From assembly GCF_036323395.1 (NCBI RefSeq), contig NZ_AP028907.1:1950001-1982000 (forward strand): a stretch of DNA of 32,000 bases, in the 5' to 3' direction. The notes under the pieces are model-generated. The model was not told the origin of the DNA. It worked only from the letters and a program-made list of their open reading frames with translations, and ran no database searches. Shown piece after piece: positions 1-13,840 of this stretch; the first letter of the stretch is position 1; every line of letters begins with the position of its first letter. A program made the position numbers and the translations under genes. Origin of the DNA: Pyrodictium abyssi (GTDB taxonomy: Archaea; Thermoproteota; Thermoprotei_A; Sulfolobales; Pyrodictiaceae).

Positions 1-1959
1 GTCCGGCGCAACCGAGACCACCGCCGAGCCGCCCGGAAGCCCGCTGAGAGCCCGCTTGACCTCCTCCGCGAACTCCTTGTCCACGGCAGCGAGCACGTCC
101 ACGTCGCGGGCGTCGGCTACGGGGAAGAACACCTTCACCAAGGTGTTCGTGAACATGCTCCGCAGAAGCACATCCGGGACCTGCCGCGGGTGCTGGTGAG
201 CCATCACGAGGACCACGCCATACTTCCTGGCCTCGCTGAGAACCGTGTCCACCACCTCGGGGATAGCCTGCGCCACGTTCTGGAACTCGTCCATAATGAT
301 GTACACCGGGGTCCGCTTCTTGCCGAGGAGAGCCCGCTCCAGCGCCCAGAACCAGATGCGGAGCACCACCATGGGTATGAGCAGCCTGAGAAACTGCTCC
401 CCCAGCACCTTCGGCAGCCTCAGTATCAGCAACCCGCCGGGCTGCAGCACGGTGTCGAGGTCCAGAGTTGACTCGGAGGTCATCGCACGGAGCAGCTTAT
501 TGTTACGGAAAGGCTCCAGCCTCGAGAAGACACCGAAGAAGCTGTCCTCGCTCATGTCCCTTAGGAGTTCGAGCTGGTGGCGCCACTCCGGGTCGTCGAT
601 CGGCAGGTCTAGCTCCTCGCGGTACAGCGCCACAAAGGTGTCGTAGAGGTCGGCGAGCGTCACCCTGCCGCCGAGCCGGTGGTACATGTAGCGGAGCACG
701 ACCTGGAGAAGGTACTTGATGCGGACACTCGTCCCGCTTAGCTCCAGCACCTTCTCGAACAGGTCCACCAGGTGGTCCGTGGCTATGTCATAGGCTTGCT
801 CCCTGTCGCGGAGGCGAGGCGGCTCCAGAGGGTTGAGGCTGGCGAGGAAGGGCCTCTCCCCGTCGTCGGTCTCGTAAACGGGGTCCACTAGCCAGACGCG
901 CTCGAGGCTAGGCAGCGACTCCAGGATGTCGTAGGAGACGTCGCCGTGGGGGTCGATGAAGACTATAGCAGCGTCGCTCTCCTCCCGGAGCCTCAGAACG
1001 AGGTTCCAGAGGAACGTCGACTTCCCGCTCCGGGTGCGGCCCACCACCCAGGTATGGAGCATCTGGCGCAGGGGAACGCAGTACTCCTTCCCGTCCAGGG
1101 TCTCCCCGAACCGGATACACTTCTCCCGCGGCTTCACCCGCGGCGTTATGCTCGGCAGCTCCCCGCCCCGGGCAAACTCCACGAAAGCTGAGACCTCGTC
1201 CGGTCTCGGCAACCTCACAAGATGCATGAAGCTCTCCTGTGGTATCCACGGGTACTCCTTCTTCGGGGAGAACCGGCCCATGAGGCTCATGGGGTCCCTT
1301 AGCTTGGAGGGGCTCCCCCTCCGGGAGACCTTCACCTTGAGTGCGGGGGTGAAGAGGCCCGCAGCCCTCTCCCCCAGCTCCCTAGCACGCTCCTTATCAT
1401 TGGTGTAGAACCTGACTGCTGTTATGTAGATGCGCTTGGTGCTCAGCTGGGAGAGGTGCCGGGCCATGTCGGGGTCCTTCTTATGGTACTCCAGGGGGCC
1501 TAGCCCCTTGAGCTCGGGGCGCTCGCCTAGACGGTAGTGCCTGGCCTTCTTGGCCAGCTCCCGGTGGGTCCTCGCATCGTAGAAGCCGACTATCTGCACC
1601 GCCTCGCCGGGCTCCAGCCAGTCGTAGACCGAGAGCCAGGCCTCGCTAGCCTCGACCCCCGTCTCCCAGGCGCCGCTCGGCGCCCTTAGCTCGGCCACCC
1701 ACTTCTGGGGGAGCTCCGGGGGCTCCTCGAGCAGCTCCACGCTCGCCCGGCGCCGCAGCAGCGGCAGCGCAATGTCGCGTATCCACGCGTAGAACTCGAT
1801 GCGGTCCTCGAGCCGGTGAGCCTCCAGCACCACGTGCGGGCTCAGGGAGACCAGCTGGGCGAACTCCCTCTCGTAGCCGAGACGCGGCTTCAGACGAACC
1901 CAGCCCACGTAATGGGTGCCCCCGAGAACCCGGCTCCTCTCAACATCCCTCCTGCCCAA
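1..1959 (-). CDS. FtsK/HerA-superfamily P-loop ATPase (T4CP TraG/VirD4/TrwB-like or DUF87-like); C-terminus runs off the left edge
   Basis: Hand translation of the minus frame (codon low coordinate = 1 mod 3). Walker A 'WVVGRTRSGKST' at ~1015-1050. 'AIVFIDPHGD' at ~934-963. 'SLNPLE' at ~823-840. Walker B 'YIIMDEFQNV' at ~274-303. 'ARKYGVVLVMAHQHPRQ' at ~181-231. The frame is open from position 1 up to a stop at 2104-2106. The only start codons are TTG 1957-1959 and GTG 1906-1908; the first ATG is at 1465-1467. It is absent from the ORF track because it is truncated by the window edge. Confidence 0.75.
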   Translation of the reverse strand, partial: MGRRDVERSRVLGGTHYVGWVRLKPRLGYEREFAQLVSLSPHVVLEAHRLEDRIEFYAWIRDIALPLLRRRASVELLEEPPELPQKWVAELRAPSGAWETGVEASEAWLSVYDWLEPGEAVQIVGFYDARTHRELAKKARHYRLGERPELKGLGPLEYHKKDPDMARHLSQLSTKRIYITAVRFYTNDKERARELGERAAGLFTPALKVKVSRRGSPSKLRDPMSLMGRFSPKKEYPWIPQESFMHLVRLPRPDEVSAFVEFARGGELPSITPRVKPREKCIRFGETLDGKEYCVPLRQMLHTWVVGRTRSGKSTFLWNLVLRLREESDAAIVFIDPHGDVSYDILESLPSLERVWLVDPVYETDDGERPFLASLNPLEPPRLRDREQAYDIATDHLVDLFEKVLELSGTSVRIKYLLQVVLRYMYHRLGGRVTLADLYDTFVALYREELDLPIDDPEWRHQLELLRDMSEDSFFGVFSRLEPFRNNKLLRAMTSESTLDLDTVLQPGGLLILRLPKVLGEQFLRLLIPMVVLRIWFWALERALLGKKRTPVYIIMDEFQNVAQAIPEVVDTVLSEARKYGVVLVMAHQHPRQVPDVLLRSMFTNTLVKVFFPVADARDVDVLAAVDKEFAEEVKRALSGLPGGSAVVSVAPD

Positions 1960-1970
1960 GCCCGGTTCCC

Positions 1971-1987
1971 CCGCCCTAGTAGGGCGG
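1971..1987. promoter_or_regulatory. perfect 17-bp palindrome CCGCCCTA-G-TAGGGCGG just upstream of the ATPase start
   Basis: Read directly: ccgccctagtagggcgg, 8-bp arms with a 1-nt centre. It lies in the divergent region between the ATPase (minus) and the small plus-strand ORF at 2052/2100. Confidence 0.4.
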
Positions 1988-2099
1988 GCCGGGAGAAGTG
2001 GAGCTGCAAGACCGTCTCCCCGCCCCGGGCCTCTAACCGGGGGAGGACCCGATGCCGGCGCCAGCCCCGGGCCTCGAGGAGCTCTTCTCGCAGATAGCC

Positions 2100-2315
2100 A
2101 TGGCTATCAGCTGCGCGCTCCACCCTGTGTCGACACTGCTAGCCCGGGCAGGGGTATCGGGCCCGGGCCTCGAGGGCCTCGACACCGCGGCCTACGCCAT
2201 GCTGGCGTGGCTCCTAGGCTCGAGGGAGAGGGAGGGCGTGAAGAAGGCGGGCTTCGTGCTGGCGGTCCTTCTCGCGGCGCTGGCGCTGCTGGAGCTCAGC
2301 CTAGCGTCAGGCTAG
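2100..2315 (+). CDS. hypothetical small protein with hydrophobic segments (possible membrane protein)
   Basis: ORF 2052..2315 with an internal ATG at 2100. The C-terminus 'AGFVLAVLLAALALLELSLA' is hydrophobic. It is divergent from the ATPase. High GC makes chance ORFs common, so support is weak. Confidence 0.3.
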   Translation: MAISCALHPVSTLLARAGVSGPGLEGLDTAAYAMLAWLLGSREREGVKKAGFVLAVLLAALALLELSLASG

Positions 2316-2496
2316 AAGGAGAGGGGGTTGAAGGCCCCGCTTCACGACAATCCACGGGGCCCGGGCCGGCTCACCCCCAGGGTCCCCGGCCCGTCATGCT
2401 CCTCGGGGGCGGCAGGGGCGCCCAGGGGCGGGGGCGGCAGCCGAGGCTCAATTCTACAGCTATATGCGCTGCGGGATAAACGCTGCGGAGCGTGGG

Positions 2497-2793
2497 CTAG
2501 CCCGGCTCTAGGGCCAGGAGCAGCTTCTCGGTAACGACAACCTCCAGCTCCTCTCCGAGCTCCTCCACGTAGACCCTCCGGGTGCCCGTCATCCTGCTGC
2601 ACATCTGGTGCCACGCCGAGGCGTAGTCGCTGCATCTGTAGCCGCTGGCCTCCAGCTCCTCTAGTCTCTCTATGAAGGCCTCCCTGGCCTCCTCCCACTC
2701 CTTGTAGCGCCGCTCCTCGATGGGCTGCGCATGCCATGGGTCCTCGCTGAGGACCCTGTAGAGCTTGACAACATAGGCCGCGGCCATGGCCAT
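2497..2793 (-). CDS. hypothetical protein (98 aa), mobile-element orphan
   Basis: The ORF has a balanced, charged composition ('EERRYKEWEEAREAFIERLEELEASGY'). It lies 6 nt downstream of ORF 2800..3006 on the same strand. Confidence 0.5.
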   Translation of the reverse strand: MAMAAAYVVKLYRVLSEDPWHAQPIEERRYKEWEEAREAFIERLEELEASGYRCSDYASAWHQMCSRMTGTRRVYVEELGEELEVVVTEKLLLALEPG

Positions 2794-2799
2794 GGCTGG

Positions 2800-3006
2800 T
2801 CACCCTAGCCGGGCTATCACCACCATCCTCTTCGCCGGCCGTACCATGGCCTGCCACATCCCGCCCTCCTGGTCCTCGTATACTAGGGTGTCCCAGCCGC
2901 CTCCGTAGAGCCGGGCATGCAGCGGAGCCCGGTCCATGAACACCACCCTGAAGCCCAGCCTGGTGAACCGGGCTACTAGCTCCCGGAGGGTCTCGGGCGC
3001 CTGCAT
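2800..3006 (-). CDS. hypothetical protein (68 aa), mobile-element orphan
   Basis: The ORF has a plausible composition. It is the first gene of a two-gene unit that is divergent from the AbrB-like gene. Confidence 0.45.
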   Translation of the reverse strand: MQAPETLRELVARFTRLGFRVVFMDRAPLHARLYGGGWDTLVYEDQEGGMWQAMVRPAKRMVVIARLG

Positions 3007-3146
3007 GGCTGTCTGCCTCCGTGTCTGCTGCTGTGTCGCTCGCCGCTAATAAGCTTGTCGCTCGACACTGGCGGGCAACACTGATATACTCTCTGTCGTG
3101 CGGCACTAGGGGTGGGGGTGCCTGGGCTGTGCCCACGGGCAATAGG

Positions 3147-3317
3147 GTGAAGGTGAGGAGGGGGCGCGGCGGCGGGGGGAGAGAGTACTACTTCGTGACC
3201 ATCCCGAAGCCTATCGCGCAGGCCCTAGGCCTAGAGCCCGGCAGAGTACTGGAGGTACGGGTGGAGGCGCGGGGAGGGAAACAGGTACTAGTCCTAGAGC
3301 CCGTCGACGAGGCCTAG
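3147..3317 (+). CDS. AbrB/SpoVT (swapped-hairpin) family DNA-binding protein
   Basis: The C-terminal part of ORF 3021..3317 reads 'YYFVTIPKPIAQALGLEPGRVLEVRVEARGGKQVLVLEPV', matching the SpoVT-AbrB pattern (hh.IPk.h...lgl..Gd.v.v...). The likely start is the in-frame GTG at 3147. AT-richer TATA-like stretches (ctaataagc, gatatact) lie upstream. Confidence 0.6.
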   Translation: MKVRRGRGGGGREYYFVTIPKPIAQALGLEPGRVLEVRVEARGGKQVLVLEPVDEA

Positions 3318-3568
3318 GCGGGCACCGGTACCCGCTTCCTCTCCCGGGCCTCGGTCTCCTCGATGTAGCGCTGCTCCCACTCGCTTGTCGGGTCCATGCC
3401 CCTCTTCTCCAGCTCGACTATAGCCATGAAGAGTATGCTGTCTACCTCGCCGGGCTCTACGCCCGGCGGGCAGTCGCCGTGCTCAGCGCACTTCCACGCC
3501 TCGTAGAGGCTGCCTATGCCGAGCCTCCGGAGCTCCCGGAGAGCCTCCTCCACGTACCCGGGCTTCAC
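3314..3568 (-). CDS. hypothetical protein (84 aa)
   Basis: Part of ORF 3314..3643. The preferred start is GTG at 3566-3568 ('VKPGYVEEALRELRRLGIG...'). It overlaps the TGA of the upstream ORF as GTGA. Its stop shares a CTAG with the convergent AbrB gene. Confidence 0.5.
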   Translation of the reverse strand: MKPGYVEEALRELRRLGIGSLYEAWKCAEHGDCPPGVEPGEVDSILFMAIVELEKRGMDPTSEWEQRYIEETEARERKRVPVPA

Positions 3569-3822
3569 GCTCCCCTCACCTCGCGGTAGAGCCGGGGCCG
3601 GGGGCAGAAGACTAGGCTCCACCCGGCCACATGTATATGCCATGCTACCCGCCCCTTACACGCCTTATGCATGTGCCTATCCACGCCGAATCGGCGCCGG
3701 AGCACCACGAGTAGTAGCCGCCACCTCCGGGGCCGGGTGATGGACAGCTTGACGTGGAGCTCTAGGAGCCCAGCTAGCCCAGCCTGCACAGCGAACCCCC
3801 AGCGCCACGCCGCCGCCCGCAT
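3565..3822 (-). CDS. hypothetical Arg/Trp-rich small protein (85 aa)
   Basis: ATG at 3820-3822 inside ORF 3565..3930. A TATA-like TTTTTATA (minus strand, 3882-3889) lies ~60 nt upstream. There is a GTGA stop/start overlap with the next gene. The composition is odd, so confidence is low. Confidence 0.3.
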   Translation of the reverse strand: MRAAAWRWGFAVQAGLAGLLELHVKLSITRPRRWRLLLVVLRRRFGVDRHMHKACKGRVAWHIHVAGWSLVFCPRPRLYREVRGA

Positions 3823-3881
3823 GATAGCCCTGGGGCGCCCCACAGCCCCCGGCCCACAAACACCCCCGGGAAGAGACACCG

Positions 3882-3889
3882 TATAAAAA
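3882..3889 (-). promoter_or_regulatory. TATA-box-like element (TTTTTATA on the minus strand)
   Basis: The plus strand reads gtataaaaacc. This is the only strong A/T box in the area and sits ~60 nt upstream of the ATG at 3822. Confidence 0.35.
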
Positions 3890-4545
3890 CCTGTCGAGCG
3901 ACAAAGAGAGAGACACCCAAAGAAGCACACCGGGGAAAGAACCCCCTCCCCGTCGACACACTACAACTATAACATGTATACCATACAGAAAGAATACTTT
4001 GTAGTATTCTAGGCCCGGATTGCCTCCCACCGCGTGATTGCCGGGAACTCAGGCGATAGACTCCCGGCCCCGTGCAACTCCACATGCCTCTCCTCTGCAG
4101 ACGGGCTAACAGCTGCTAGCTCGAGGAGAACAGGTAAGCTCGGCAGCTGACTCGATTACGTGGGCTTACCCAGCGGTTAGGCGATATTATGGCCGGCCTA
4201 TGTAGCCTCAGGCGATAAGCCCCGGCCATAGGAGCGGTGGTGTCTGCACCAGGCCGATACTATTCTACTCTCCATATAGGATCCCGGGGAGAGCTCACAC
4301 CCCTCGACAACATAGAATAGTTCCGGCCCAGGCCTTGCGGAGAGAATAGATTCATCCACCATAGTTCTGGAATCGGCTTACCGGGACGGTTTAAAGAGAA
4401 TCGGTTAGGTGCGAGACAGGCTACAGGCTATGAGGAGGGGGCGGGTGCATGGAACTGTTGGTATTACCCATGGCGAGTGGTTAGCGATTGAGAGAAAAGA
4501 TAGTATTACCGTTTAACCAATTGTGCATAGGGGGTCTAGGACGCC
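3890..4545. repeat. ~650-bp non-coding, AT-richer, repeat-dense region (candidate replication origin, iterons or regulatory hub of the element)
   Basis: No credible ORF. AGGCGATA occurs at 4051, 4179 and 4210, with the variant AGGCCGATA at 4251. The three exact copies are each followed by CCGGCC within ~5-6 nt. GGCTTACC..CGGTT occurs at 4163 and 4375. AGAATAG occurs at 4314 and 4343, with an inverted copy at ~4261. GTATTACC occurs at 4461 and 4503. There is a perfect inverted repeat AGAATACT-ttgt-AGTATTCT at 3991-4010. Confidence 0.6.
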
Positions 4546-5148
4546 TCAGGCGCGGGTCATGGCCTCGACTTCGTGTAGGGTTATGTCTACGGGTCCTAGC
4601 CTGGAGGCTAGGAGGTAGAGGACGCGTAGCAGCTCGGCTAGCTCGCCGTAGGCCTTGGCCTCCTTCTCCCTGAGGCTCTGGATTAGCCCCCGTAGCCTCT
4701 TCGCCAGGTAGCCCCGTAGCGCTCCTAGGACCTCCTGCGGGTGTCCTAGGGCTACCTTGTTCCTCCGGGCCCTCCTCCTGGCTGGCCCGGTGACCCGGGC
4801 CCGGGGCGACGCCGTCACGACGGCTACGAAGGTGTCCCGGGCTGGCGGGGCCCGCTGGGCCACGTACCGGCGTAGCCGGAGAACCTTCGCCGCGACCCTG
4901 CTCCAGGTCAGTGGCCGGGCCTCCTCCGTGGTGGAGTAGACTGCGACCACCAGGGGGGCCGAGGCCGGGAGCTCTATCTCGACGAGGTAGGCCCTCCTAT
5001 CGCTACTTCCCTCGTCGAAGCGGTAGCGGAGCTCCAGCCCCAGCCTCTCACGCACAAAGCGGAGAACACGGGCAAGAACAAGCCTAACAACATTATACGC
5101 CCCGAGCGCTAGGTTCATCCTCTCCTCGCTCCACCGCTCCCCCGCCAC
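4546..5148 (-). CDS. hypothetical protein (200 aa), last gene of the long minus-strand operon
   Basis: The ORF starts 4 nt after the upstream stop. It has a basic central stretch, 'RARVTGPARRRARRNK'. I recognise no family. Confidence 0.55.
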   Translation of the reverse strand: MAGERWSEERMNLALGAYNVVRLVLARVLRFVRERLGLELRYRFDEGSSDRRAYLVEIELPASAPLVVAVYSTTEEARPLTWSRVAAKVLRLRRYVAQRAPPARDTFVAVVTASPRARVTGPARRRARRNKVALGHPQEVLGALRGYLAKRLRGLIQSLREKEAKAYGELAELLRVLYLLASRLGPVDITLHEVEAMTRA

Positions 5149-5152
5149 GGCT

Positions 5153-5392
5153 TTACACCCTCTCCTCGGCGCAGTATACGACGTGGCCTCTCCTCTGCAC
5201 GCGCTTCCAGAGCCTCCCCGTGTACTCCACGAGAGTATCCTGGACCTTTCCGCGGCCCACGTCCACGCCCATGGCGCGGAGCGCCTCCGCTATCTCCCGG
5301 GGCCTCATACAGCCAGCGCTGCGGAGCAGCAGCCACACCATGCCCGCTATCACGTCCCGGCTCAGCCCCCTCCGGAGCAGCACCTCAACCAT
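5153..5392 (-). CDS. small winged-helix/HTH DNA-binding protein (79 aa)
   Basis: Internal ATG at 5390-5392 of ORF 5153..5422. 'MRPREIAEALRAMGVDVGRGKVQDTLVEY' resembles an HTH recognition unit followed by a wing. It lies 7 nt after the stop of the TGT-like gene. Confidence 0.5.
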   Translation of the reverse strand: MVEVLLRRGLSRDVIAGMVWLLLRSAGCMRPREIAEALRAMGVDVGRGKVQDTLVEYTGRLWKRVQRRGHVVYCAEERV

Positions 5393-5399
5393 GGCATAC

Positions 5400-6332
5400 T
5401 CACCCCTGCGTGAGCAGCTCAACCATGCGCTCTAGGAACGTCGCGAAGTAGACGACCCTCATGCCCCCGTCCTTCGCAGACCACAGGTACGGTACTCGAG
5501 GAAACGTCCAGGTCTTGCTGTCCCACGAGCCGGGCGGCAGCCTCGAGGAGACGGCAGCGTCCAGCGGGGCGCCGAAGAGGTGGAGGTGGAGCCTGTCCAG
5601 CCCATGGTCTTCTAGGAGCCTTCTCGCCTCCTCTACGGCGTGTATCCACGCCCGCTTCTGCCGCCCGGCTAGGAGCTTCAGGCTGCCGAGCGCGACTACC
5701 CCGTACTTCTCCACGATACCGGTCTCTGCCAGCCATGCTAGGTGCTTAGAGTGGCCTGTATCCCTCGAGGCCTGCGCGACCGGTATCCATGGCAGCTCGG
5801 GGTGCTCGGCTAGCAGCCGCTCCTGCAGCCTCATGGTGTGCTCCACGTTGCCCTCAACGGTGGCCGGCACGTCGGGCATCACGACGCGCCACGAGAAGCC
5901 ATGCCTCCTAGCCAGCAGCCTCGCCCTGTCGACGCTGCTCCACAGCGTGTCCCAGAACCTGTCGCTGTACTCCGCCGTCTTCCCGTTGAACCAGTCCATG
6001 ATACCCACGTCGAGGACCACACTAGAGGGCCTCGCCCCCAGCCCCCTCATGTTCTCCAGTAGCTTCTCGAGCACGTCAATGCTCTTCACCGGGACGAGTA
6101 TCCAAGGCCACAGCGGCACCGGCGGCAGCGTGTAGTAGGCGAGCCGGTTCCTCGCCAGCGCCAGCACGGCCTTGATTACCGTCTCCACAGCGCCTCCATG
6201 GATAATTCCCACGTCGGGATTATCCATGCGCCTCATGTGCCGGGGCCCAATGCCCAGTAGGCGCCAGAGGCTACGGTACGCGGTAACATAGGGCACGCCC
6301 AGGCTGGCGGCTATGCTGCGTAGGCTGGTCAT
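5400..6332 (-). CDS. N-terminal HTH fused to a TGT-superfamily (tRNA-guanine transglycosylase / DpdA-like) TIM-barrel protein
   Basis: Start taken at the ATG at 6330-6332, an ATGA overlap with the upstream gene. The longer track ORF adds an Arg/Pro-rich leader that is probably not translated. HTH: 'LRSIAASLGVPYVTAYRSLWRLL'. Five segments fall in the canonical TGT order:
- 'VLDVGIMDWF' (cf. TDSGGFQ)
- 'VVMPDVPAT' (cf. MAFDECTP)
- 'WIPVAQAS' (cf. FGIVQGG)
- 'YGVVALGSL' (cf. GYAIGGL)
- 'LHLFGAP...GSWDSKTWT' (cf. YLMGVG...DMFDCV.PT)
No CxCxxC..H zinc motif is seen. Confidence 0.55.
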   Translation of the reverse strand: MTSLRSIAASLGVPYVTAYRSLWRLLGIGPRHMRRMDNPDVGIIHGGAVETVIKAVLALARNRLAYYTLPPVPLWPWILVPVKSIDVLEKLLENMRGLGARPSSVVLDVGIMDWFNGKTAEYSDRFWDTLWSSVDRARLLARRHGFSWRVVMPDVPATVEGNVEHTMRLQERLLAEHPELPWIPVAQASRDTGHSKHLAWLAETGIVEKYGVVALGSLKLLAGRQKRAWIHAVEEARRLLEDHGLDRLHLHLFGAPLDAAVSSRLPPGSWDSKTWTFPRVPYLWSAKDGGMRVVYFATFLERMVELLTQG

Positions 6333-6640
6333 GGCTCCTCGGCCTCCCACCACGTCTCTCCGAAGCTGTCTGGCACGCCGGCCTCCCGGAGCGCCTCGGC
6401 GAGCAGGCGCGCGGAGGGGCCGCGGCACGCGCCGCCCTCGCACAGCGTGCCGTCGCTGGCCTCTATGCGGCAGCGCCACGTCTTGAAGAAGCGGCACTCG
6501 GCGCGCACAACCAGCCCCGCCGCAGCGTACACGGCGCGCGCCTCGCAGCCGCCGCCGGCTACACGGTGGTCCACGGTGTGGCGGAGCACGGGCACACGCC
6601 GGTCCAGCGCCCCCGCGAGCTTGCGCAGCGCCTCAGCCAC
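6329..6640 (-). CDS. hypothetical 5-Cys protein (103 aa)
   Basis: The ORF overlaps both neighbours (8 nt upstream, 4 nt downstream), consistent with operon membership. It contains 'ECRFFKTWRCRIEASDGTLCEGGAC'. Confidence 0.5.
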   Translation of the reverse strand: MAEALRKLAGALDRRVPVLRHTVDHRVAGGGCEARAVYAAAGLVVRAECRFFKTWRCRIEASDGTLCEGGACRGPSARLLAEALREAGVPDSFGETWWEAEEP

Positions 6641-6929
6641 GGCCCATCCGCCTCATTCCCCTCGCTCTGCCCTCCTCCAGTAGCTTCCTCAGCTCCTCGG
6701 CCCTGACCGCTGTGCACTCGTCCATGCACGTCTCGGGGTCGCAGTAGTCGCAGCTCCTACACTCCACGTCGCAGATGCTCCACGCTACCAGCTCCACGGC
6801 CCTCTCCACGGGCAGCTCGTCGAGGGCGCTGCCGAGGACCAGCACCAGCCTGCCCAGCACCATGGGCGCCGGCAGCCCAGCCATGCTGTTGGCGAGCCTC
6901 TCCGCTAGCACCGCCCCGTGGCCCGCCAC
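6633..6929 (-). CDS. hypothetical Cys-cluster protein (98 aa), possible metal or Fe-S binding
   Basis: 'CDVECRSCDYCDPETCMDEC' has six Cys spaced Cx3Cx2Cx2Cx4Cx3C. It lies 16 nt after the stop of the DUF5591-like gene. Confidence 0.5.
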   Translation of the reverse strand: MAGHGAVLAERLANSMAGLPAPMVLGRLVLVLGSALDELPVERAVELVAWSICDVECRSCDYCDPETCMDECTAVRAEELRKLLEEGRARGMRRMGRG

Positions 6930-6945
6930 CCTCCATCACCCCGCC

Positions 6946-7599
6946 TCACAGGAGCTCCTGTAGCTCCGGCACTCTACGGAGTGGCTCGAGGACTCGGGGC
7001 AGATCGCCGAGCCCGAAGATGGTGAACCTCACGAAGACCTCGTCTGGCCAGAGGTTGGTGAGCCTCCTCGCCTCCCGCCAGAGCGTCATGTGCTTCCGGG
7101 GGAGGAAGAGCACTACCCGCTCTAGGCCCCGTGCGGCGAGCTCCTCCACCACGTCGCGGAGCGTCTCCACGACCAGGCCCCGTAGCAGCGGGCGCTGGAG
7201 GACCTCATCGGGGTGGAGCTCGTAGCAGCAAGCGGGGTAGGTCTCGGCCCGCTCATAGGGCACCAAGAGTAGCAGGTCGCTGAAGTAGAGCCATTCTATC
7301 CCAGCGGGCCTGTCCACGTCGCTGCTCCAGAGCCCGAGGCGGCGGAGCAGCCCACGTATCTTCCGCGATGTGGGGCTCCTGGTGTAGGGCTTCACGCTAG
7401 AGCACGGCGTTACGAGGGCCACGGGGCTCCGTGGCCTGTACTCCCTCCGGAGCCACTCCCACCAATCCTTCACCGCGGGATGCTCGAATGCGCGGGGCCC
7501 CGCCAGCCTGGGGTCTAGGCCGTTATGATGTCTCGGGGGCCACCGGCCGTCCTCCTTCCGGACTACGTACCTGTAGCCACGCTTCACGGTCAGCGCCAC
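6946..7599 (-). CDS. stand-alone DUF5591 / ArcS (archaeosine synthase) catalytic-domain-like protein
   Basis: Start taken at the GTG at 7597-7599 ('VALTVKRGYRY...'). 'FEHPAVKDWWEWLRREYRPRSPVALVTPCSSVKPYTRSPTS' matches the ArcS signature PC-x3-KPY-x2-S-x2-H, except that the final His is Ser. The downstream 'LLLVPYERAETYPACCYEL' resembles the DUF5591 'VP.E.e..YPa..Yd' segment. Confidence 0.6.
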   Translation of the reverse strand: MALTVKRGYRYVVRKEDGRWPPRHHNGLDPRLAGPRAFEHPAVKDWWEWLRREYRPRSPVALVTPCSSVKPYTRSPTSRKIRGLLRRLGLWSSDVDRPAGIEWLYFSDLLLLVPYERAETYPACCYELHPDEVLQRPLLRGLVVETLRDVVEELAARGLERVVLFLPRKHMTLWREARRLTNLWPDEVFVRFTIFGLGDLPRVLEPLRRVPELQELL

Positions 7600-7709
7600 C
7601 GCCTCTCCCTCCTCTCCATCCTCTTGACGTGGACGACAGTGTAGACGATGAAGGGGAGCACGAGGAGCTCTAGGAGAAACAGGGCGAGCGGGTCCAGGGC
7701 TACTGTCAC
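7590..7709 (-). CDS. candidate 39-aa single-pass membrane micro-protein
   Basis: GTG at 7707-7709 overlaps the TGA of the upstream gene (GTGA). The translation is 'VTVALDPLALFLLELLVLPFIVYTVVHVKRMERRERRWR', a hydrophobic helix with a basic tail. It ends 10 nt inside the next gene. It is below the 60-aa cut-off of the track. Confidence 0.3.
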   Translation of the reverse strand: MTVALDPLALFLLELLVLPFIVYTVVHVKRMERRERRWR

Positions 7710-7969
7710 CCCAGCCTGAGCGCCATGACGCGGTGCATCTCCGGCCCCATAGCCCCATGGAAGGGTTCGGCCACTGCCTCGCAGCCAGTAGCCTCCATGA
7801 CCGCCCTCTTCACGAGCCTGGCTACCACGTCGCAGTCGCTGAGCCTCTGCGGTATGGCACCCATGGCTAGCAGCCCCTTCATTATCTCCTCGAGGTCCGG
7901 CACCGTCCTGCCACTGCAATCCGTGATGATAACCTGCAGCAGGCACTGCCCCACCACGAACAAGGCCAC
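7706..7969 (-). CDS. hypothetical protein (87 aa)
   Basis: The ORF has a GTG start at 7967-7969 and lies 3 nt after the stop of the upstream micro-ORF. Its composition is plausible ('DLEEIMKGLLAMGAIPQRLSDCDVVARLVKRAV'). Confidence 0.45.
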   Translation of the reverse strand: MALFVVGQCLLQVIITDCSGRTVPDLEEIMKGLLAMGAIPQRLSDCDVVARLVKRAVMEATGCEAVAEPFHGAMGPEMHRVMALRLG

Positions 7970-7972
7970 GGC

Positions 7973-8110
7973 CTAGCCCTCCTCTTCGCACTTCACGGTG
8001 GCCGGGACGATGACGCTGCTGTAGAGCCACTCGAGGAACACGGCTCTGGCATCCTCCACGTTCTCCGCGACGACCTGGCTCTCGACGCGGCAGCGGTAGA
8101 GCCTCGCCAC
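7973..8110 (-). CDS. candidate 45-aa micro-protein
   Basis: GTG at 8108-8110, 4 nt after the RHH gene stop. The translation is 'VARLYRCRVESQVVAENVEDARAVFLEWLYSSVIVPATVKCEEEG', with TAG at 7973-7975. It exactly fills an otherwise empty gap in the operon. Confidence 0.3.
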   Translation of the reverse strand: MARLYRCRVESQVVAENVEDARAVFLEWLYSSVIVPATVKCEEEG

Positions 8111-8114
8111 CGTG

Positions 8115-8333
8115 CTACACCTCGACCTCAAAGACCAAGGCTCTAGAATCGTGGCGGAGGACGGTGGGGCTGTGGCGAGGGCGGCGCGGCAGGGGCAGGC
8201 CCTGCTCGCGGAGGTACCGCTCTATTGCTTCGCGTATGACCTCGCTCCTCGTGACGTGCTGAGCCTTGGCCACCTGGTCAAGCTCCTTTACTATGCACTC
8301 GTCAACCTTGAACGTGACTACACGCATCGGCAT
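8115..8333 (-). CDS. ribbon-helix-helix (CopG/Arc/MetJ-type) DNA-binding protein
   Basis: 'RVVTFKVDECIVKELDQVAKAQHVTRSEVIREAIERYL' is the classic RHH pattern of a beta strand followed by two helices. Confidence 0.65.
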   Translation of the reverse strand: MPMRVVTFKVDECIVKELDQVAKAQHVTRSEVIREAIERYLREQGLPLPRRPRHSPTVLRHDSRALVFEVEV

Positions 8334-8338
8334 GGCTG

Positions 8339-8827
8339 CTACCCCGTTTTCGCGCCCCAGTATGGGTGGGCGTACTCTGCGGGGACCCGGGCGTAGGCTA
8401 GGATGAGGGCCGCTGCCACTGCAAGCTTATTGTCTTGGCCATAGCACTGCATCTTACAGTCAACGAGCGCGCCGGTGTTCTTGGCTCTTAGCTCTGCCTG
8501 GCAGCCCTTGTAGTCGTATATGCACTGTATGCCTAGCACATAGCTCTTGGACCTGGCTATCACTCTCACATCGTATGTGCCGGCTTTCTTCGTGACCTGC
8601 GGCTTTTCGCCTAGGATTAGCTCGAACGCCTTCACGAGCCTCTCGGTGTCGATACAGCTTATGCAGCCCGGCGGCACGTAGAAGAGTATGCTGCCGCCGA
8701 AGGCCCGCGCGTCTGGCAGCTCCTCAACCAGCTTAGCGGCCTCCTCGCCCAGCAGCCTAGCTACACGCTTCCGAGCCTCCCGCCGTTCCTCCACAACCCA
8801 GTCCAAGCCCATAGCCACACTAACCAC
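8339..8827 (-). CDS. hypothetical Cys-containing protein (162 aa)
   Basis: The ORF lies 3 nt after the upstream stop and 5 nt before the RHH gene. I recognise no family. Confidence 0.5.
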   Translation of the reverse strand: MVSVAMGLDWVVEERREARKRVARLLGEEAAKLVEELPDARAFGGSILFYVPPGCISCIDTERLVKAFELILGEKPQVTKKAGTYDVRVIARSKSYVLGIQCIYDYKGCQAELRAKNTGALVDCKMQCYGQDNKLAVAAALILAYARVPAEYAHPYWGAKTG

Positions 8828-8830
8828 CCC

Positions 8831-9136
8831 CTACGCGCAATCAGAAGAAGCAAAGGACTCCGGAGAGCGGAGCAGAGACTCGACATCACTCTCAAGAAGC
8901 CTTAGACGCGGTAGGAGCTCGGAAACAGGGACACCCTCCCCGAGCTCCTCCTGCAGCTCAGTAAGCCTCACGAGAAGCCGGCACGCCGCGGCCACAACGC
9001 GGGAGCAGCGACTCCTATAAGCCAGGTCCGCCACACGGTTCTTGAGAAGACGTATCCGGGCCTCGAGCGCCTCCACAGGAAAAACTATATGGTGAGACGC
9101 CCTCTTACCCACAACCACAGAGGCTCCCACAGACAC
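8831..9136 (-). CDS. hypothetical coiled-coil-like protein (101 aa), first gene of the operon
   Basis: GTG start. It has heptad-like Leu/Arg/Glu repeats ('EALEARIRLLKNRVADL', 'LVRLTELQEEL'). A ~390-bp non-coding region lies upstream. Confidence 0.45.
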   Translation of the reverse strand: MSVGASVVVGKRASHHIVFPVEALEARIRLLKNRVADLAYRSRCSRVVAAACRLLVRLTELQEELGEGVPVSELLPRLRLLESDVESLLRSPESFASSDCA

Positions 9137-9208
9137 CTTGGCCCCTCCGGGCCCCCGTGGGGCACAGGTGCCCCCGGGAGGCCCACAAATTGGGTAGGGA
9201 CACTACCG

Positions 9209-9216
9209 ATTTATAG
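9209..9216 (-). promoter_or_regulatory. TATA-like box (CTATAAAT on the minus strand) upstream of the 12-gene operon
   Basis: The plus strand reads gatttatagc, ~75 nt upstream of the start at 9136. Confidence 0.3.
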
Positions 9217-9444
9217 CTTGCTCTGGAGACCATAGACTGGGCTCCTACATGCTATGTTCCGCTTGGGAGTGGCTAGGGGCTGCGGCTTCTCTGCTGCACG
9301 GTGCCCTGCTAGTCTTTTCTTTGAGTCCGGCCGGAAACGCAAGGGGAGTTTAATGGGCCGCGCCAGCCTTTTCTTAGAACCGGTAGGGTGCCGGGCAGGG
9401 TTTATCAGGGAGTCTTCTGCCTGTCAGGCACATAGGGGAGCTAC

Positions 9445-9466
9445 GCGTAATACACGTATATTACGC
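9445..9466. promoter_or_regulatory. 22-bp near-perfect palindrome GCGTAATA-cacgta-TATTACGC (candidate operator overlapping a TATA-like box)
   Basis: Read directly. The arms are perfect 8-bp repeats and the spacer contains ACGT. It lies ~65-80 nt upstream of the 9529/9544 start. Confidence 0.45.
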
Positions 9467-9543
9467 CCCAGGCTGCCCGGGCCGGCATTTTCGGAGAAGC
9501 CTCGTCACCTCCGATATGCGTCTCCCCCGTGGGTGCCGGTTTG

Positions 9544-10071
9544 ATGGCTGCGCGGGTCTGGCTCACGCCCGAGGAGTGGGCCCTACTCATAATTGGGCTC
9601 GCCGGCAGCGAGCTCAGAGGAGCGACTACTCTACAGAAGCTGGGCTTCCTCGGCGTAATGGAGGCTGGCGGCGAAGGCCTCGAGTACGTGCCGTGGAAGT
9701 ACGGACCCTTCAGCGAGGACCTACACGAGGCGGTTAAGCAGCTGCGTCGCGAGGGCCTCCTCAAGCGCCATGTTGTGTTCGAGAACAGGATGCTCTATAC
9801 AGCCACGGTCTACGTCTACGAGCTGACCCCCCGGGGGGAGGCCGAGTTTCGCAAACTCCTCCGCCGGCTTGAGAAGGAGCACCCTGACTTCCTCCGCAGG
9901 ATGAGGGAGATAGTTGAGGAGTGGAAGGACAAGCCGTTCCACTTACTCTACTACGTCTACAAGCGCTACAAGGACTGGACATACTTCAGCGAGATAAGAG
10001 ACGAAGTAATGAGGCTAGGAAGGCTCCTCGAGCGTCAAGGCGAGCGCCAGAGCAAAACTCGCGGAAGCTAG
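9544..10071 (+). CDS. Panacea (SocA/DUF4065)-like domain protein followed by a winged-helix-like region
   Basis: 'TTLQKLGFLGVME...EYVPWKYGPFSEDLHEAVKQLRREGLL' matches the Panacea core (LqKLlY..., W.yGPv...ly..l). The alternative start is GTG at 9529. Confidence 0.5.
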   Translation: MAARVWLTPEEWALLIIGLAGSELRGATTLQKLGFLGVMEAGGEGLEYVPWKYGPFSEDLHEAVKQLRREGLLKRHVVFENRMLYTATVYVYELTPRGEAEFRKLLRRLEKEHPDFLRRMREIVEEWKDKPFHLLYYVYKRYKDWTYFSEIRDEVMRLGRLLERQGERQSKTRGS

Positions 10072-10690
10072 GAACCTCGCTTGCCTCGCGATAGCCTAGA
10101 ACCGTGTAAACTCTTCTAGCACGCTCAAACAACATGTTGCAGACATCTTTTCTCATATCCTCGCTCCTCCATCCGATAGCTACCACTAGGACAATCATTG
10201 CTATGAGCATTCCTGCAGTTATGGTCTCGAGGCTTAGCAGTCCTTGTGGAAAGTTGCGTGGTGCTTCGTTGATCATGTACGCTGCAAGGTTGGCTAGGAT
10301 TGGCGGGGCTACACTAAGAAGGACACCATGTTGTATAGTGGGGAGTTGTTGCGTTCTCTCCACGATTCTACCGCTTAGCCTGTATATTTCGCCAATACTC
10401 TGTTGAAGCTCTGCACGAAGATTTTTCAAAACCTGCATATAAAGTGCTTGGTCCTCTTCTGTGCTCGCCTCTACAGTGCTGCGTGGTGGGTAAGGTACAG
10501 AGGTAGCGATGTTATTGTTGAGACCAATTAGCTCTGCAAGTTTGGTTTCCAGGACATCGGCGTCCTCGCTGTCAAGTTTAGACTCAAGATCATGAATGCG
10601 CTCTCTAAGCTTTACAGCCCTATACATGAGTATTCCAGTGACGGAGGATGCAGCACCTCCCAGAAGGGTTGCTAAAAAGCTAAACGGCAA
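9986..10690 (-). CDS. membrane protein with an N-terminal TM helix, a coiled-coil and two further TM helices (234 aa)
   Basis: 'FSFLATLLGGAASSVTGILMY' (TM). 'KLRERIHDLESKLDSEDADVLETKLAEL' (coiled-coil). 'GVLLSVAPPILANLAAYMI' and 'ITAGMLIAMIVLVVAIGW' (TM). Local composition is lower in GC. It lies 12 nt downstream of the AbrB-domain gene. Confidence 0.55.
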   Translation of the reverse strand: MPFSFLATLLGGAASSVTGILMYRAVKLRERIHDLESKLDSEDADVLETKLAELIGLNNNIATSVPYPPRSTVEASTEEDQALYMQVLKNLRAELQQSIGEIYRLSGRIVERTQQLPTIQHGVLLSVAPPILANLAAYMINEAPRNFPQGLLSLETITAGMLIAMIVLVVAIGWRSEDMRKDVCNMLFERARRVYTVLGYREASEVPSFREFCSGARLDARGAFLASLLRLLSR

Positions 10691-10702
10691 CCTAGCAACC
10701 CT

Positions 10703-11155
10703 CTAGGCAGGCTCAACAACTATCCGAGAACCCTCGATACGGATACGGACAAAGAGAGGCTCTCCTAGCGCTTCATACACCCATTTAGGAATCGGGATAC
10801 GCAGTGAACTCTTACGGTCGCGACGCACTTTAACATCGCCATTCTCATATACTGGTTCATAGATAGCTCTCTTTGCCTCTGTGCGAACTTTGTACTCGCC
10901 GTCAGGCAAAGACGCTCTTACATAAACCGCGTAGATGCGGCCATAGCGGGAAACTTTCCTCACGATTTCTTCTTCGCTTGCCGTGGGTCGTATTCGGGCT
11001 TCTACCTCCTTTAGGGCTAGTATTCTTTCATGGGGGGCTAGGCCACGCAGAATGTCAAGTATGCTGTCAACTGCTCTTGCTACACTTAGACTCATTTCTT
11101 GTGCCCCCGGGGTTTTAGCATCCCGGGGTATGACCTTTTGTGCTTCGGTGGCCAT
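10703..11155 (-). CDS. protein with a C-terminal AbrB/SpoVT/MazE-like swapped-hairpin domain
   Basis: The C-terminus reads 'SLRIPIPKWVYEALGEPLFVRIRIEGSRIVVEP'. The N-terminal ~110 aa are unassigned. An internal alternative start is 'MSLSVARAV'. Confidence 0.55.
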   Translation of the reverse strand: MATEAQKVIPRDAKTPGAQEMSLSVARAVDSILDILRGLAPHERILALKEVEARIRPTASEEEIVRKVSRYGRIYAVYVRASLPDGEYKVRTEAKRAIYEPVYENGDVKVRRDRKSSLRIPIPKWVYEALGEPLFVRIRIEGSRIVVEPA

Positions 11156-11215: not shown

Positions 11216-11291
11216 TGGAGCCGCCGCCGGGATTCGAACCCGGGACCTCCGCCTTACCAGGGCGGCGCTCTGCCGGCTGAGCTACGGCGGC
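11216..11291 (-). tRNA. tRNA-Thr (anticodon GGU), CCA encoded
   Basis: The reverse complement GCCGCCGTAGCTCAGCCGGCAGAGCGCCGCCCTGGTAAGGCGGAGGTCCCGGGTTCGAATCCCGGCGGCGGCTCCA folds as a 7/4/5/5-bp cloverleaf. The anticodon loop is CUGGUAA and the T-loop is TTCGAAT. There is no intron. Confidence 0.9.
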
Positions 11292-11432
11292 ACGCTCCAG
11301 TGCTACCGGCTCTACCCGTGGTCCCGGGTAAATCCCTTACGGCTCCATGTCGCGTGGCTTGTCTGATTGGGCTACAGTAGCAGTATTATTCCGGTAGAGC
11401 CTATCCGCCCTTCCCCCGGGGTGCTGGGTAGA

Positions 11433-12434
11433 ATGAGCTACAAGCTGCCAAAAGCGCTTGTAACGACGGTTGTCGGTAGCTACCCTAAGCTGCCGGAGGC
11501 CGAGCAAGCTATCCAGAAGAGGAAGCATGGCCTCGTGAGCGAAGAGGAGTTTCACGAGCTCGTCAAGCCCGCTATAAAGGCTGTGGTTATGGACCACATT
11601 GAGGCTGGTGTGGACGTCATAAGTGATGGCGAGCAAGCGCGCGAGGACATGGTAGTGTACTTTGCCGAGAGGCTGGGTGGCTACAGGAGCGGCGACTGGG
11701 TCCGCATATTCGATAACGTGTACTTCCGTAAGCCCGTGGTGGCCTCCCGGCTGAGCTACATAGCCCCGATGGCTGTGGCTGACTGGGAGTATGCGAAGAG
11801 CGTAGCCCAGGGTAGGCCTGTCAAGGCTATAATAACTGGCCCCTATACTATGGTTGACTGGAGCTTCGACCTCGCCTACGGTGACCGCCGCGAGCTAGTA
11901 CTGGAGATGGCCCGGGTGCTACGCCACGAGATAGAAGAATTCGCGCGCCGAGGCGCCGAGTTCATACAAGTAGACGAGCCAGCTCTATCAACTAGGCCCT
12001 ACCGCGAGGAGGCCGAGCTCCTACGCGAGGCCCTCGAGATAATGTTCAAGGGCATCAGCGCCAAGAAGATCATACACATATGCTTCGGCAGGATAGAGAA
12101 GATACTACCCTATGCCCTCGACTTCCCCGTGGACCAGATAGACCTAGAGTTCAAGAACAGTAACTTCCGCCTTCTACCATACCTTAAAGAGTACGGCTTT
12201 GACAAGGAGCTAGGCTACGGCGTAATAGACGTGCACAGCACCCGCATAGAGAGTATAGAGGAGATAAAGAACGACATCTACCGGCTCATAAAGATGGACA
12301 TCATACCGCCAGAGAAGATATACATAGACCCCGACTGTGGTGTTAAGAGGCTCCCACGCGAGATAGCGAAGGCAAAGCTACGTAACATGGTCAAAGCGGC
12401 GCGCGAGGTACGCCGCGAGCTAGGATACGAGTAG
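11433..12434 (+). CDS. metE: cobalamin-independent methionine synthase, short archaeal MetE C-terminal-domain type (COG0620)
   Basis: '[10 protein letters not shown]', '[10 protein letters not shown]', 'IIHICFG' and 'DPDCGVK' (zinc-ligand motifs). ATG at 11433 is preferred over the track start at 11367. Confidence 0.8.
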
Positions 12435-12625
12435 CCAGCCCCTGAACAACAACGCGTGGTGCACCATAGTCTTTCTCATTCCTTATGTTTTACCGCAGCA
12501 CCGCGTTCTCCTCTGCAGCCTGGGAGCCAGGAGCCACCACCAGCAGCGTAGAGGGTATTGGCTTATGCTATGGTATGCGAGTGTGATGCCGTGACAACGG
12601 CCAAGGGTAAACGAGGGATGCTGTC

Positions 12626-13840
12626 ATGGTGGTGGAAGGGCTACCCTATCCAACTAAGAGGATAAAAGAGGGGAAAGCAGAGATAATAATTCCAGACCCG
12701 GATGCTTATCGCCGTAAAGACGGTGTATACGAGCCAGCATGGGCGCCAGTATTCTATAACCCGCGGATGCGCTTCAACCGCGACCTTGCTGTGCTGTTTG
12801 CCAATGCTTACCGGGAGCTGGCAGGACTAGAACGACTCGTAGTAGTGGAGCCTCTAACGGGTAGCGGTGTCAGAGCAATACGCTATGCAGTGGAATCTGG
12901 TGCGCGAGTGTATGCAGCAGACATAGACCCTGATGCTGTGCACTTAGCCAGGATCAATGTAGAGAACAACGGTGTGGCAGACCGTGTAACCGTTGAACGT
13001 GCTGATGCGAACGAGTACCTAGCTCGGCTGAAGAGGGAGGGAATAAGACCATCAATAGTAGATATAGACCCCTTCGGAAGTCCAGCCCCGTTCATAGATA
13101 CGGCTATACAGTCGATAAGTGTACGGGGAGTACTGGCGGCAACGGCCACGGACACAGCCCCGCTTTCCGGTACACATTCTCGCGCCCTGCGCCGGAGATA
13201 CGACGTAAAGCCAGCTCGTACTGCATGGGAGAAAGAGCAGGCTGTGAGAATCCTTGTGGGCTACATAATAAGGAGGGCGGCGAGCCACGAGTATGGAGCA
13301 CGCATACTTCTAGCATACTACGCAGACTACTACGTGAGGATATATGCCGAGATTAGGCGGGGTGCATCGCGGGCAGATGAAAGCCTCTCAATGCTAGGCT
13401 ATGGTGTCTACTGCCCCTACTGTGGCTACACGGGATACACCGATACGCCAAGTCATCAATGCCCCTACTGTGGGGGTAGCCTCCAAGTTGTAGGCCCCCT
13501 TTACCGGGGGCCGCTATGTGACCCCGAACTTGTTAAGCGTATGAGGAGGCTAGCTGAGGAGGAAAACACTACGCTGGCAGAACATAGGCGTATAACTAGG
13601 CTGCTTGAACAGCTGGAGGCCGAATGCAGTATAACAAAGCCGTACTATCGGCTCGATAGGCTGTGCAGTATACTGCGCATGAACATGCCAAAGCTGGCTC
13701 AGCTCGTAGACGCTCTCCGCGCCAGAGGCTATAAGGCTACGCGTACACACTTTGACCCACGCGGGTTCAGGACAGACGCGCCACACCCAGAAGTAGTCAA
13801 TACCCTAATAGAGCTACGGACAAGACCTGACCAGGTGTAG
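12626..13840 (+). CDS. trm1: tRNA (guanine(26)-N2)-dimethyltransferase Trm1
   Basis: 'FYNPRMRFNRDL', 'EPLTGSGVRAIRYA', 'DIDPFGSPAPFIDTA', and a C-terminal CPYCG...CPYCG zinc motif. Confidence 0.9.
   Translation: MVVEGLPYPTKRIKEGKAEIIIPDPDAYRRKDGVYEPAWAPVFYNPRMRFNRDLAVLFANAYRELAGLERLVVVEPLTGSGVRAIRYAVESGARVYAADIDPDAVHLARINVENNGVADRVTVERADANEYLARLKREGIRPSIVDIDPFGSPAPFIDTAIQSISVRGVLAATATDTAPLSGTHSRALRRRYDVKPARTAWEKEQAVRILVGYIIRRAASHEYGARILLAYYADYYVRIYAEIRRGASRADESLSMLGYGVYCPYCGYTGYTDTPSHQCPYCGGSLQVVGPLYRGPLCDPELVKRMRRLAEEENTTLAEHRRITRLLEQLEAECSITKPYYRLDRLCSILRMNMPKLAQLVDALRARGYKATRTHFDPRGFRTDAPHPEVVNTLIELRTRPDQV

Follow-up and report, generated by a model that had tools for sequence, protein, structure and literature searches.

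A DpdA-like protein and its ArcS-core partner on an apparently integrated element of Pyrodictium abyssi: a probable 7-deazaguanine DNA-modification module

What are a transglycosylase-like protein and an ArcS-like protein, encoded in one gene string of an apparently mobile element of a hyperthermophilic archaeon, likely to modify? The question is raised by a stretch of 32,000 nucleotides (nt) from Pyrodictium abyssi (NZ_AP028907.1, positions 1,950,001–1,982,000, forward strand), called the window below and supplying all coordinates given here. The first gene (5400–6332, minus strand) encodes a protein of 310 amino acids (aa), a divergent member of the tRNA-guanine transglycosylase (TGT)/DpdA superfamily with a helix-turn-helix (HTH)-like head, and the second (6946–7599, minus strand) encodes a 217-aa, single-domain, stand-alone DUF5591 protein, equivalent to the core (C1) of ArcS and resembling ArcS2. 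7-Deazaguanine marks in DNA are found mainly in phages, in a bacterial restriction-modification island and in a few archaeal viruses. The reading favored here, with a probability of about 60%, is that the two genes, borne by an integrated element resembling a conjugative plasmid, make up a module for 7-deazaguanine modification of DNA of the DpdA/ArcS2 type, and that the mark protects the element from restriction.

Homology, fold and active site of the DpdA-like protein

An earlier, sequence-only reading of this DNA had named the two open reading frames (ORFs) as a TGT-like protein and a DUF5591 protein; both were found on the minus strand at the coordinates above with every quoted peptide present, those in 5400–6332 being SVVLDVGIM, VMPDVPATV, PVAQAS, ALGSLKL, LHLFGAP, SWDSKTWT and the N-terminal SIAASLGVPYVTAYRSL. 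The product of 5400–6332 is 100% identical to a P. abyssi hypothetical protein, and its start at 6332 is backed by alignment with 12 homologues, all of which begin M[AT]SLR. Only 15 sequences make up the close family; they all come from Pyrodictium or related metagenomes, and Pfam matches none of them. No match to the 310-aa protein was found in PHROGs or, by tblastn, in 50,697 phage records, and searches of PDB sequences with two family profiles (A1 and A2) were empty.

Profile A1, built from 13 members of the Pyrodictium clade, was searched with HMMER against 1.84 billion representative sequences (E ≤ 1e-3) and gave 51 matches. Among 42 aligned relatives, 13 match the Pfam DpdA family (PF23859) and two the Pfam TGT family (PF01702). 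The matches include P0114 (E 3.7e-11) and P0122 (E 1.2e-8), which score 45 and 53 bits, respectively, on Pfam DpdA (cut-off 27), and P0122 in turn matches about 400 mycobacteriophage genomes. In a non-circular comparison by hhalign, the Pyrodictium clade alone was aligned with six Pfam-DpdA proteins at 98.5% probability (E 3.6e-15, 171 columns), and a broad profile from which all Pfam-DpdA members had been excluded reached the mycobacteriophage DpdA-type proteins Bella96 gp63 (95.5%) and OSmaximus gp20 (94%). Assignment of the 5400–6332 product to the TGT superfamily, as a protein of the DpdA kind, is thus supported by profile methods: direct library search is empty, but the family profile and the non-circular alignment both reach DpdA.

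The AlphaFold2 model of the protein (predicted local distance difference test, pLDDT, 80.9; predicted template modeling score 0.83) has an N-terminal head of three helices followed by alternating strands and helices, from which an alpha/beta catalytic domain of the triosephosphate isomerase (TIM) type is predicted at residues ~62–310 (5400–6149, minus strand, stop codon included). The top Foldseek matches in the PDB were Cap10 (E 3.4e-5) and the Z. mobilis TGT. In BFVD, unnamed phage proteins came first, and nearly all of the named matches near the top were queuine tRNA-ribosyltransferases of phages. Taken by itself, the fold evidence supports the assignment without deciding it. Since Cap10 is the best PDB fold match, apurinic/apyrimidinic endonuclease-type TIM barrels also occur among the Foldseek matches and no curated family is matched directly, the protein might use its TGT fold otherwise, to place a base onto protein (as Cap10 of CBASS does), to act as a DNA glycosylase or to exchange some other base. 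Such a function is considered quite unlikely: neither a CD-NTase nor a QueC-like partner lies nearby, the sequence-profile links point to DpdA, and the conserved partner is an ArcS core, the known substrates of which are only preQ0 derivatives.

Over the 42 relatives (17–65% identity), residues D154, Q187, H251, F253, G254 and D271 are invariant and D108, G110, T166 and S269 nearly so. The conserved residues sit in six motifs in the canonical order, and these motifs align with those of Pfam-DpdA proteins. For the DpdA of Salmonella (S. Montevideo), D95 is the general acid/base, D130 and H181 serve in base recognition, D256 is the nucleophile, the G206/G207 loop reads the 7-substituent, and D95A and D256A abolish guanine exchange (PMC10164549). 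By sequence alignment, not superposition, D108 (codon 6009–6011), D154 (5871–5873), Q187 (5772–5774), G216-S217 and D271 (5520–5522) correspond to D95, D130, H181, G206/G207 and D256 of that enzyme; H251, F253 and G254 belong with them among the key residues.

The three-helix head occupies residues 1–40 (MTSLRSIAASLGVPYVTAYRSLWRLLG..., 6213–6332, minus strand), with predicted helices at residues 4–10, 15–26 and 30–37. Weak HTH_5 (4.7e-4), HTH_28 and MerR matches were obtained at the position of the head in three relatives (P0102, P0104 and P0106); for the window protein, Pfam gives no HTH match. From the predicted helices and these weak matches the head is best described as HTH-like, and the more specific label "resolvase-like," given to it earlier, was not established. 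At its other end the protein stops about 40 residues past the nucleophile motif, with no PUA or other C-terminal domain.

The DUF5591 partner, the pairing and the carrier element

The 6946–7599 product matches Pfam PF17884 at E 6.2e-6, a borderline score (26.6 bits against a cut-off of 26), and it is matched weakly over the motif region by the NCBIfam ArcS models and at E 1.1e-10 by phrog_34505. It has 85 homologues, most of which have PF17884 on record. When the family profile was searched against PDB sequences, the single match was A. fulgidus AF0587 (2q07, E 4e-7), and the AlphaFold model of the window protein (pLDDT 86.2) gave the same structure as its sole significant Foldseek match (E 7e-6). 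By tblastn it finds the ArcS2 genes of STSV1, STSV2 and STSV4 (27–29% identity, E down to 4e-7). The motif PCSSVKPYTRSPTS (7366–7407) reads PC-x3-KPY-x2-S-x2-S, and the protein is without PUA, C2 or TGT-like N-terminal domain. Assignment to DUF5591 is thus supported by Pfam, profile and fold.

A second P. abyssi DUF5591 copy (P0026) is 63% identical by BLASTP and 59% identical in the family alignment. Orthologous chromosomal genes are present in P. delaneyi (L021 and L022) and Hyperthermus butylicus (L005), in a syntenic housekeeping neighborhood with a peptide ABC transporter upstream and an aminotransferase, a radical S-adenosylmethionine (SAM) gene of ~358 aa and PAP2 downstream. Separately, a radical-SAM protein of 632–641 aa was observed ~7 kb from the P. 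delaneyi chromosomal DUF5591 gene. In a neighbor-joining tree, the copies on elements group as a single clade inside the chromosomal crenarchaeal family, and a C-terminal LQELL distinguishes them. From this distance tree, which carries no support values, we infer a single capture of a host DUF5591 gene. The suggestion that the pair is an ArcS split in two was not sustained: the barrel protein is closest to the DpdA type, and the DUF5591 protein appears to be a captured paralogue of the chromosomal family.

This origin bears on whether RNA might be the target, the pair being a minimal element-borne arcTGT plus ArcS that modifies or remodifies tRNA or another RNA of host or element with archaeosine. 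The tRNA archaeosine pathway is the source of both folds, the host family is the source of the DUF5591 copy, ArcS chemistry is documented on RNA (PMC11298593), and two distant relatives of the barrel protein score slightly higher on Pfam TGT than on DpdA. Set against this are the absence from the pair of PUA domains, as had been noted earlier, of arcTGT C-terminal tRNA-binding domains and of a zinc site, the HTH-like head found instead, and profile links to 13 DpdA versus two TGT members; moreover, the host has its own DUF5591 gene, so that an element copy serving tRNA would be redundant. An RNA target is therefore regarded as a slim prospect, and DNA is retained as the probable substrate.

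The minus-strand gene order is DUF5591 (6946–7599), a 98-aa ORF (6633–6929), a 103-aa ORF (6329–6640), the DpdA-like gene (5400–6332), an 89-aa ORF and a 200-aa ORF. Among the first four genes, 16 nt separate the first two, and the next two junctions overlap by 8 nt and by 4 nt (ATGA), in agreement with the tight operon described in the sequence-only reading. Pairing was counted over seven loci that have a close DpdA-like homologue and enough flanking sequence: the window, two P. delaneyi elements (L003 and L004), a metagenome-assembled genome (MAG) of Pyrodictiaceae (L010), and L023, L024 and L025. In 7/7, a DUF5591 gene on the same strand precedes the DpdA-like gene at close range; it abuts or overlaps that gene in four (L010, L023, L024 and L025), and one or two small ORFs are inserted in the other three. 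Even P0015, at 53% identity the most distant of the close members, keeps the pairing, and the flanks vary among the loci (for example, a 547-aa protein and an AAA_14 ATPase in L023). A locus search with profile A1 reached only two species genomes and no viral contig.

The small ORFs vary between loci and can therefore be taken as accessories, the conserved unit being the DpdA-like/DUF5591 pair. The Cys-rich 98-aa ORF (6633–6929, minus strand; ..CDVECRSCDYCDPETCMDEC.. with CxxxCxxC spacing), which lies between the two enzyme genes, is kept in L003 (84% identity) and L004 (67%) and is absent from L010, L023, L024 and L025; a role for it in supplying a zinc site in trans was considered and dropped, given its absence from 4/7 loci. 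Of the other loci, L003 alone has the 103-aa ORF (6329–6640, minus strand; 77% identity), which L004, L010 and L023–L025 lack. Downstream of the DpdA-like gene, the 89-aa and 200-aa ORFs (4546–5422, minus strand) have conserved counterparts in L003, L004 and L010; L011 has the 200-aa ORF as well. None of the four small ORFs has a significant family match in Pfam, NCBIfam or PHROGs.

Close neighbors may still work in separate pathways, the DpdA-like protein modifying DNA by itself (for example, to dPreQ0) and the DUF5591 protein acting on tRNA-bound or free preQ0 nucleotides or on a drifted nitrile/amidine chemistry. An HTH-headed relative, P0102 (35% identity), lies in a similar ribbon-helix-helix (RHH)-rich element with no DUF5591 within 6 kb, from which it follows that the transglycosylase can exist alone; many phage DpdAs do act alone (PMC10516641), and the element DUF5591 is nested in the chromosomal family with the same motif. 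We nevertheless regard this arrangement as unlikely, the genes being adjacent or overlapping in 7/7 loci that span 53–100% identity and changing flanks, and the separate element clade with its LQELL C terminus implying long co-evolution with the DpdA-like gene. Joint action of the two proteins on DNA remains the preferred reading.

The pair lies on an island that ends at a tRNA-Thr(GGT) gene (11216–11291, minus strand; identified by ARAGORN and Rfam), which marks the boundary between element and chromosome and is the probable integration site. The window is collinear with two P. delaneyi loci (L003 and L004) from 11155 down to ~124, and collinearity stops at 11155. The related elements start at tRNA genes too, directly after tRNA-Val in L003 and L004 and after tRNA-Asn in L010, and the Pyrodictiaceae MAG locus L010 also has the central genes (DUF5591, DpdA-like and the two ORFs downstream of the latter). 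At the window start, an ORF cut by the window edge (1–1290, minus strand) encodes the N-terminal 430 aa of a TraG/VirD4-HerA/FtsK-type ATPase with TrwB_AAD_bind, TraG-D_C, FtsK_SpoIIIE and DUF87 matches, the full-length P. delaneyi homologues of which have 1216 aa (L003) and 1136 aa (L004). The ATPase suggests, by its sequence, that the element is conjugative and resembles a conjugative plasmid. The tRNA boundary, the shift in GC content, the gene order shared with elements that sit at other tRNA genes and the TraG-like ATPase together point to an integrated, conjugative-plasmid-like element, in accord with the mobile island proposed earlier. Neither attachment-site direct repeats nor an integrase was found in the window, because the element extends beyond the window start. 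A megablast search of the island against phage records gave no match.

Comparison with known systems and weight of the evidence

That a DpdA and an ArcS2 are paired on mobile elements is already known from STSV2 and phage nt-1. STSV2 encodes a DpdA together with an ArcS-core-only (DUF5591) protein renamed ArcS2, and dCDG was found in its DNA at 0.04% of G (Hutinet et al., PMC10516641); the two genes (STSV2_15 and STSV2_16) were confirmed to be adjacent on the same strand. The sequence-only reading was right about function in large part, and wrong about novelty as it was about a split-ArcS origin: its suggestion that no such system had been characterized for a mobile element of a hyperthermophilic crenarchaeon is contradicted by STSV2. 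As in the window, the module of STSV2 (and also of STSV1 and STSV4) consists of two genes carried by a mobile element whose host is a thermophilic crenarchaeon: a small, divergent TGT-fold protein without direct Pfam TGT or DpdA match is joined by a stand-alone DUF5591 protein. In STSV2, as on the visible part of the window element, no preQ0 synthesis genes accompany the module. The differences are several. Gene order is opposite, with DUF5591 first in the window; the barrel proteins are remotely related (hhalign 0.3% with the narrow profile, 38% or 85% with broad profiles); the STSV2 DpdA lacks the HTH head; the ArcS2 motif of STSV2 ends in His, that of the window protein in Ser; and the STSV2 carrier is a bicaudavirus whose DNA has been measured (dCDG), whereas the window carrier is an apparently integrated, TraG-encoding element.

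In E. coli, DpdA2 of phage nt-1 alone gave dPreQ0 in plasmid DNA, and with ArcS2 it gave dG+ (PMC10516641). This pair follows the same logic, is the only tested case, and is likened to the window pair by description only; in contrast to the window element, nt-1 is a phage of a bacterium (Vibrio) that also encodes FolE, QueD, QueE and QueC, and its ArcS2 motif is degenerate in a different way. A 2019 survey listed 16 archaeal viruses with such genes (PMC6884629). dPreQ0 is present in Rosebush, a mycobacteriophage with a DpdA gene (PMC6884629); this phage too is likened to the window by description only. The mycobacteriophage DpdAs and the Pfam PF23859 DpdAs share the xDSG, VQG, IG(S/T)L, IHxFG and SxDSxxWT motifs with the window protein, whereas the mycobacteriophage proteins lack an ArcS2 partner. 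Canonical or split ArcS, including A. fulgidus AF0587 (2q07), has the same core with PC-x3-KPY-x2-S as the window DUF5591; it differs in its motif His and in the PUA, C2 and TGT-like N-terminal domains that the window protein lacks. The substrate of canonical ArcS is tRNA, and T. kodakarensis ArcS requires the radical-SAM protein RaSEA as its complex partner for activity (PMC11298593); no RaSEA-type gene is visible on the element. From the bacterial Dpd system (dpdA–K), in which the DpdB ATPase, DpdC and the restriction components DpdD–K accompany dpdA, the window differs in its neighbors, which are small proteins without family, an RHH protein and a TraG-like ATPase, and a PADLOC scan of the pair gave no Dpd match.

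The nearest relatives outside Pyrodictiaceae share all motifs with the window protein (hhalign 96.7–99.9%). They belong to a clade, including ORF12 of Methanobacterium virus PhiF1 (L015) and proteins on IMG/VR contigs (L013 and L014), that makes up most of the 42 relatives; these are proteins of ~250 aa without annotation whose second Asp motif reads PDYPDDY, where the window protein reads PDVPAT. The clade is found in archaeal viruses and elements and is mostly missed by the curated DpdA, TGT and DUF6610 models. Members lie in DNA-modification neighborhoods with DNA methyltransferases; most, unlike the window protein, have neither an HTH head nor a DUF5591 partner. PhiF1 ORF12 has a PAPS-reductase-like gene and a gene for a C5 DNA methyltransferase nearby (ORF10 of this virus, suspected of being QueC, turned out to be PAPS-reductase-like), and on an 87-kb IMG/VR contig a DpdA-like relative directly follows a large DNA methyltransferase. 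On a metagenome contig (L016, GCA_004196295.1), a 487-aa Pfam-DpdA protein (P0151) has a QueT transporter gene two genes upstream and a 421-aa radical-SAM gene adjoining downstream, and the contig may hold another 7-deazaguanine DNA-modification cluster. These neighborhoods fit DNA modification and 7-deazapurine metabolism, as circumstantial evidence.

A DpdA-kind protein with conserved catalytic residues, an ArcS core, strict pairing in a conserved module, the mobile-element context and the lack of PUA domains and a zinc site together make DNA-targeted modification the best reading of the locus. In the mechanism proposed, the HTH-like head would dock the 310-aa protein on DNA, and guanines of the duplex would be swapped for preQ0 drawn from the host archaeosine pathway by the double displacement of the TGT/DpdA superfamily, with D271 as putative nucleophile, D108 as putative general acid/base, and D154 and Q187 reading the base. 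Archaeosine is near-universal in Archaea (PMC5485725), and this, with the chromosomal DUF5591 paralogue, hints at a host preQ0 pathway. The DUF5591 protein would then act on the nitrile of the preQ0 placed in DNA, turning it into an amidine-type derivative, and so block reverse exchange. ArcS acts on the preQ0 nucleoside or 5′-phosphate whatever the tRNA structure, and its product resists reverse exchange (PMC11298593); action of a stand-alone core on DNA-bound preQ0 is therefore chemically plausible. The product would most likely be dG+ and possibly a lysine adduct or a carboxy or amido form, and the mark would shield element DNA from restriction on entry into a new host.

Several results weigh against this reading. 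The 310-aa protein has no direct match in Pfam (PF23859 and PF01702), NCBIfam or the PADLOC Dpd models, even at permissive E-values, and PF20314 (DUF6610, DpdA4) is matched by neither the window protein (E ≤ 1) nor the 42 relatives (E ≤ 0.01), a statement that rests on model searches. Its Foldseek TM-scores reach only 0.41–0.46, with other TIM barrels close behind. It contains no Cys and therefore has no zinc site, as noted in the sequence-only reading, so that the canonical TGT zinc subdomain (CxCxxC...H) is missing. In the DUF5591 protein, the last residue of the ArcS motif is changed from His to Ser, the rest of PC-X3-KPY-X2-S-X2-H being kept; the substitution had been seen earlier and is real, but the same Ser occurs in essentially all of ~80 stand-alone crenarchaeal DUF5591 proteins, chromosomal ones included, and is therefore a family trait and not a peculiarity of the element. 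The same protein also has a near paralogue encoded on the chromosome, the presumed target of which is tRNA, and P0102, described above, does without a DUF5591 partner. No preQ0 synthesis genes were found on the visible part of the element. Finally, the product in STSV2 is dCDG and not dG+, and the product of such a pair can thus differ from prediction.

A bolder version, which we consider rather improbable, would make the Pyrodictium and PDYPDDY proteins a sixth DpdA subfamily, recognized by no curated model, in which the HTH of the Pyrodictiaceae members directs site-specific insertion and the DUF5591 protein makes an undescribed base, such as a preQ0-lysine adduct rather than dG+. On this version, the HTH fusion would mean that deazaguanine is inserted at defined sites of an element that survives near 100°C, and the Ser in place of His, together with the lack of a RaSEA partner on the element, would point to a DNA base not described so far.

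New here are a DpdA clade that no model recognizes, the HTH-like head, the absence of zinc, an apparently host-derived ArcS-core partner with Ser for His, and a non-viral, TraG-encoding carrier. If the favored reading is true, 7-deazaguanine marks would extend to non-viral, conjugative-type elements of hyperthermophilic Crenarchaeota, and a DpdA clade missed by current models would be added; as current models miss this clade, present surveys would be undercounting such systems. The locus would also be a natural case of an ArcS-core gene of the host tRNA pathway captured and re-used for DNA. It would offer a second module of transglycosylase-type plus DUF5591-only composition for product determination, after STSV2, whose dCDG product did not match its gene content. 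A thermostable, zinc-free, HTH-fused DNA transglycosylase could, if confirmed as such, serve in site-directed labeling of DNA.

Other features of the window

The GC content is 60–69% at 1–10000, 50% at 10001–11000 and 51–59% over the rest of the window. To the right of the tRNA-Thr gene, which was the sole match in the Rfam scan, lie chromosomal genes that include MetE-like, Trm1 (m2,2G tRNA methyltransferase, 12626–13840), TFB, PanE, an RsmB/NSUN-type methyltransferase (17142–18497) and aIF5B (28654–30477). No queuosine or archaeosine genes were found among ten ORFs scanned on this host side (11367–31351).

On the element side, a CopG-type RHH protein (8115–8333, minus strand; Pfam RHH_1, E 3.7e-10) is encoded upstream in the same gene string as the pair. 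An RHH gene occupies the equivalent place in L003, L004, L008 and L025, and the protein is likely to be an element regulator. A MazE/AbrB-type, SpoVT-like protein is also encoded on the element (3021–3317, plus strand). The segment 9250–10700 is not collinear with the P. delaneyi elements, has a lower GC content (0.50 at 10–11 kb), and contains a 180-aa ORF (9529–10071, plus strand) with weak SocA/Panacea and hemerythrin matches and a 234-aa ORF (9986–10690, minus strand) without family match; it looks like strain-specific cargo within the element.

A non-coding stretch of ~600 nt (3950–4555) is conserved in the two P. delaneyi elements at a column identity of 83%, a better value than for most element proteins. 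Gene calls in the relatives leave it empty, and Rfam gives no match. It contains short repeated words (CTCAGGCGATA twice, GGTAATAC and TTCTCCTCGAGC) and a 16-nt inverted repeat (4252–4267/4313–4328), and is a candidate for a replication or transfer origin or for a non-coding RNA of the element.

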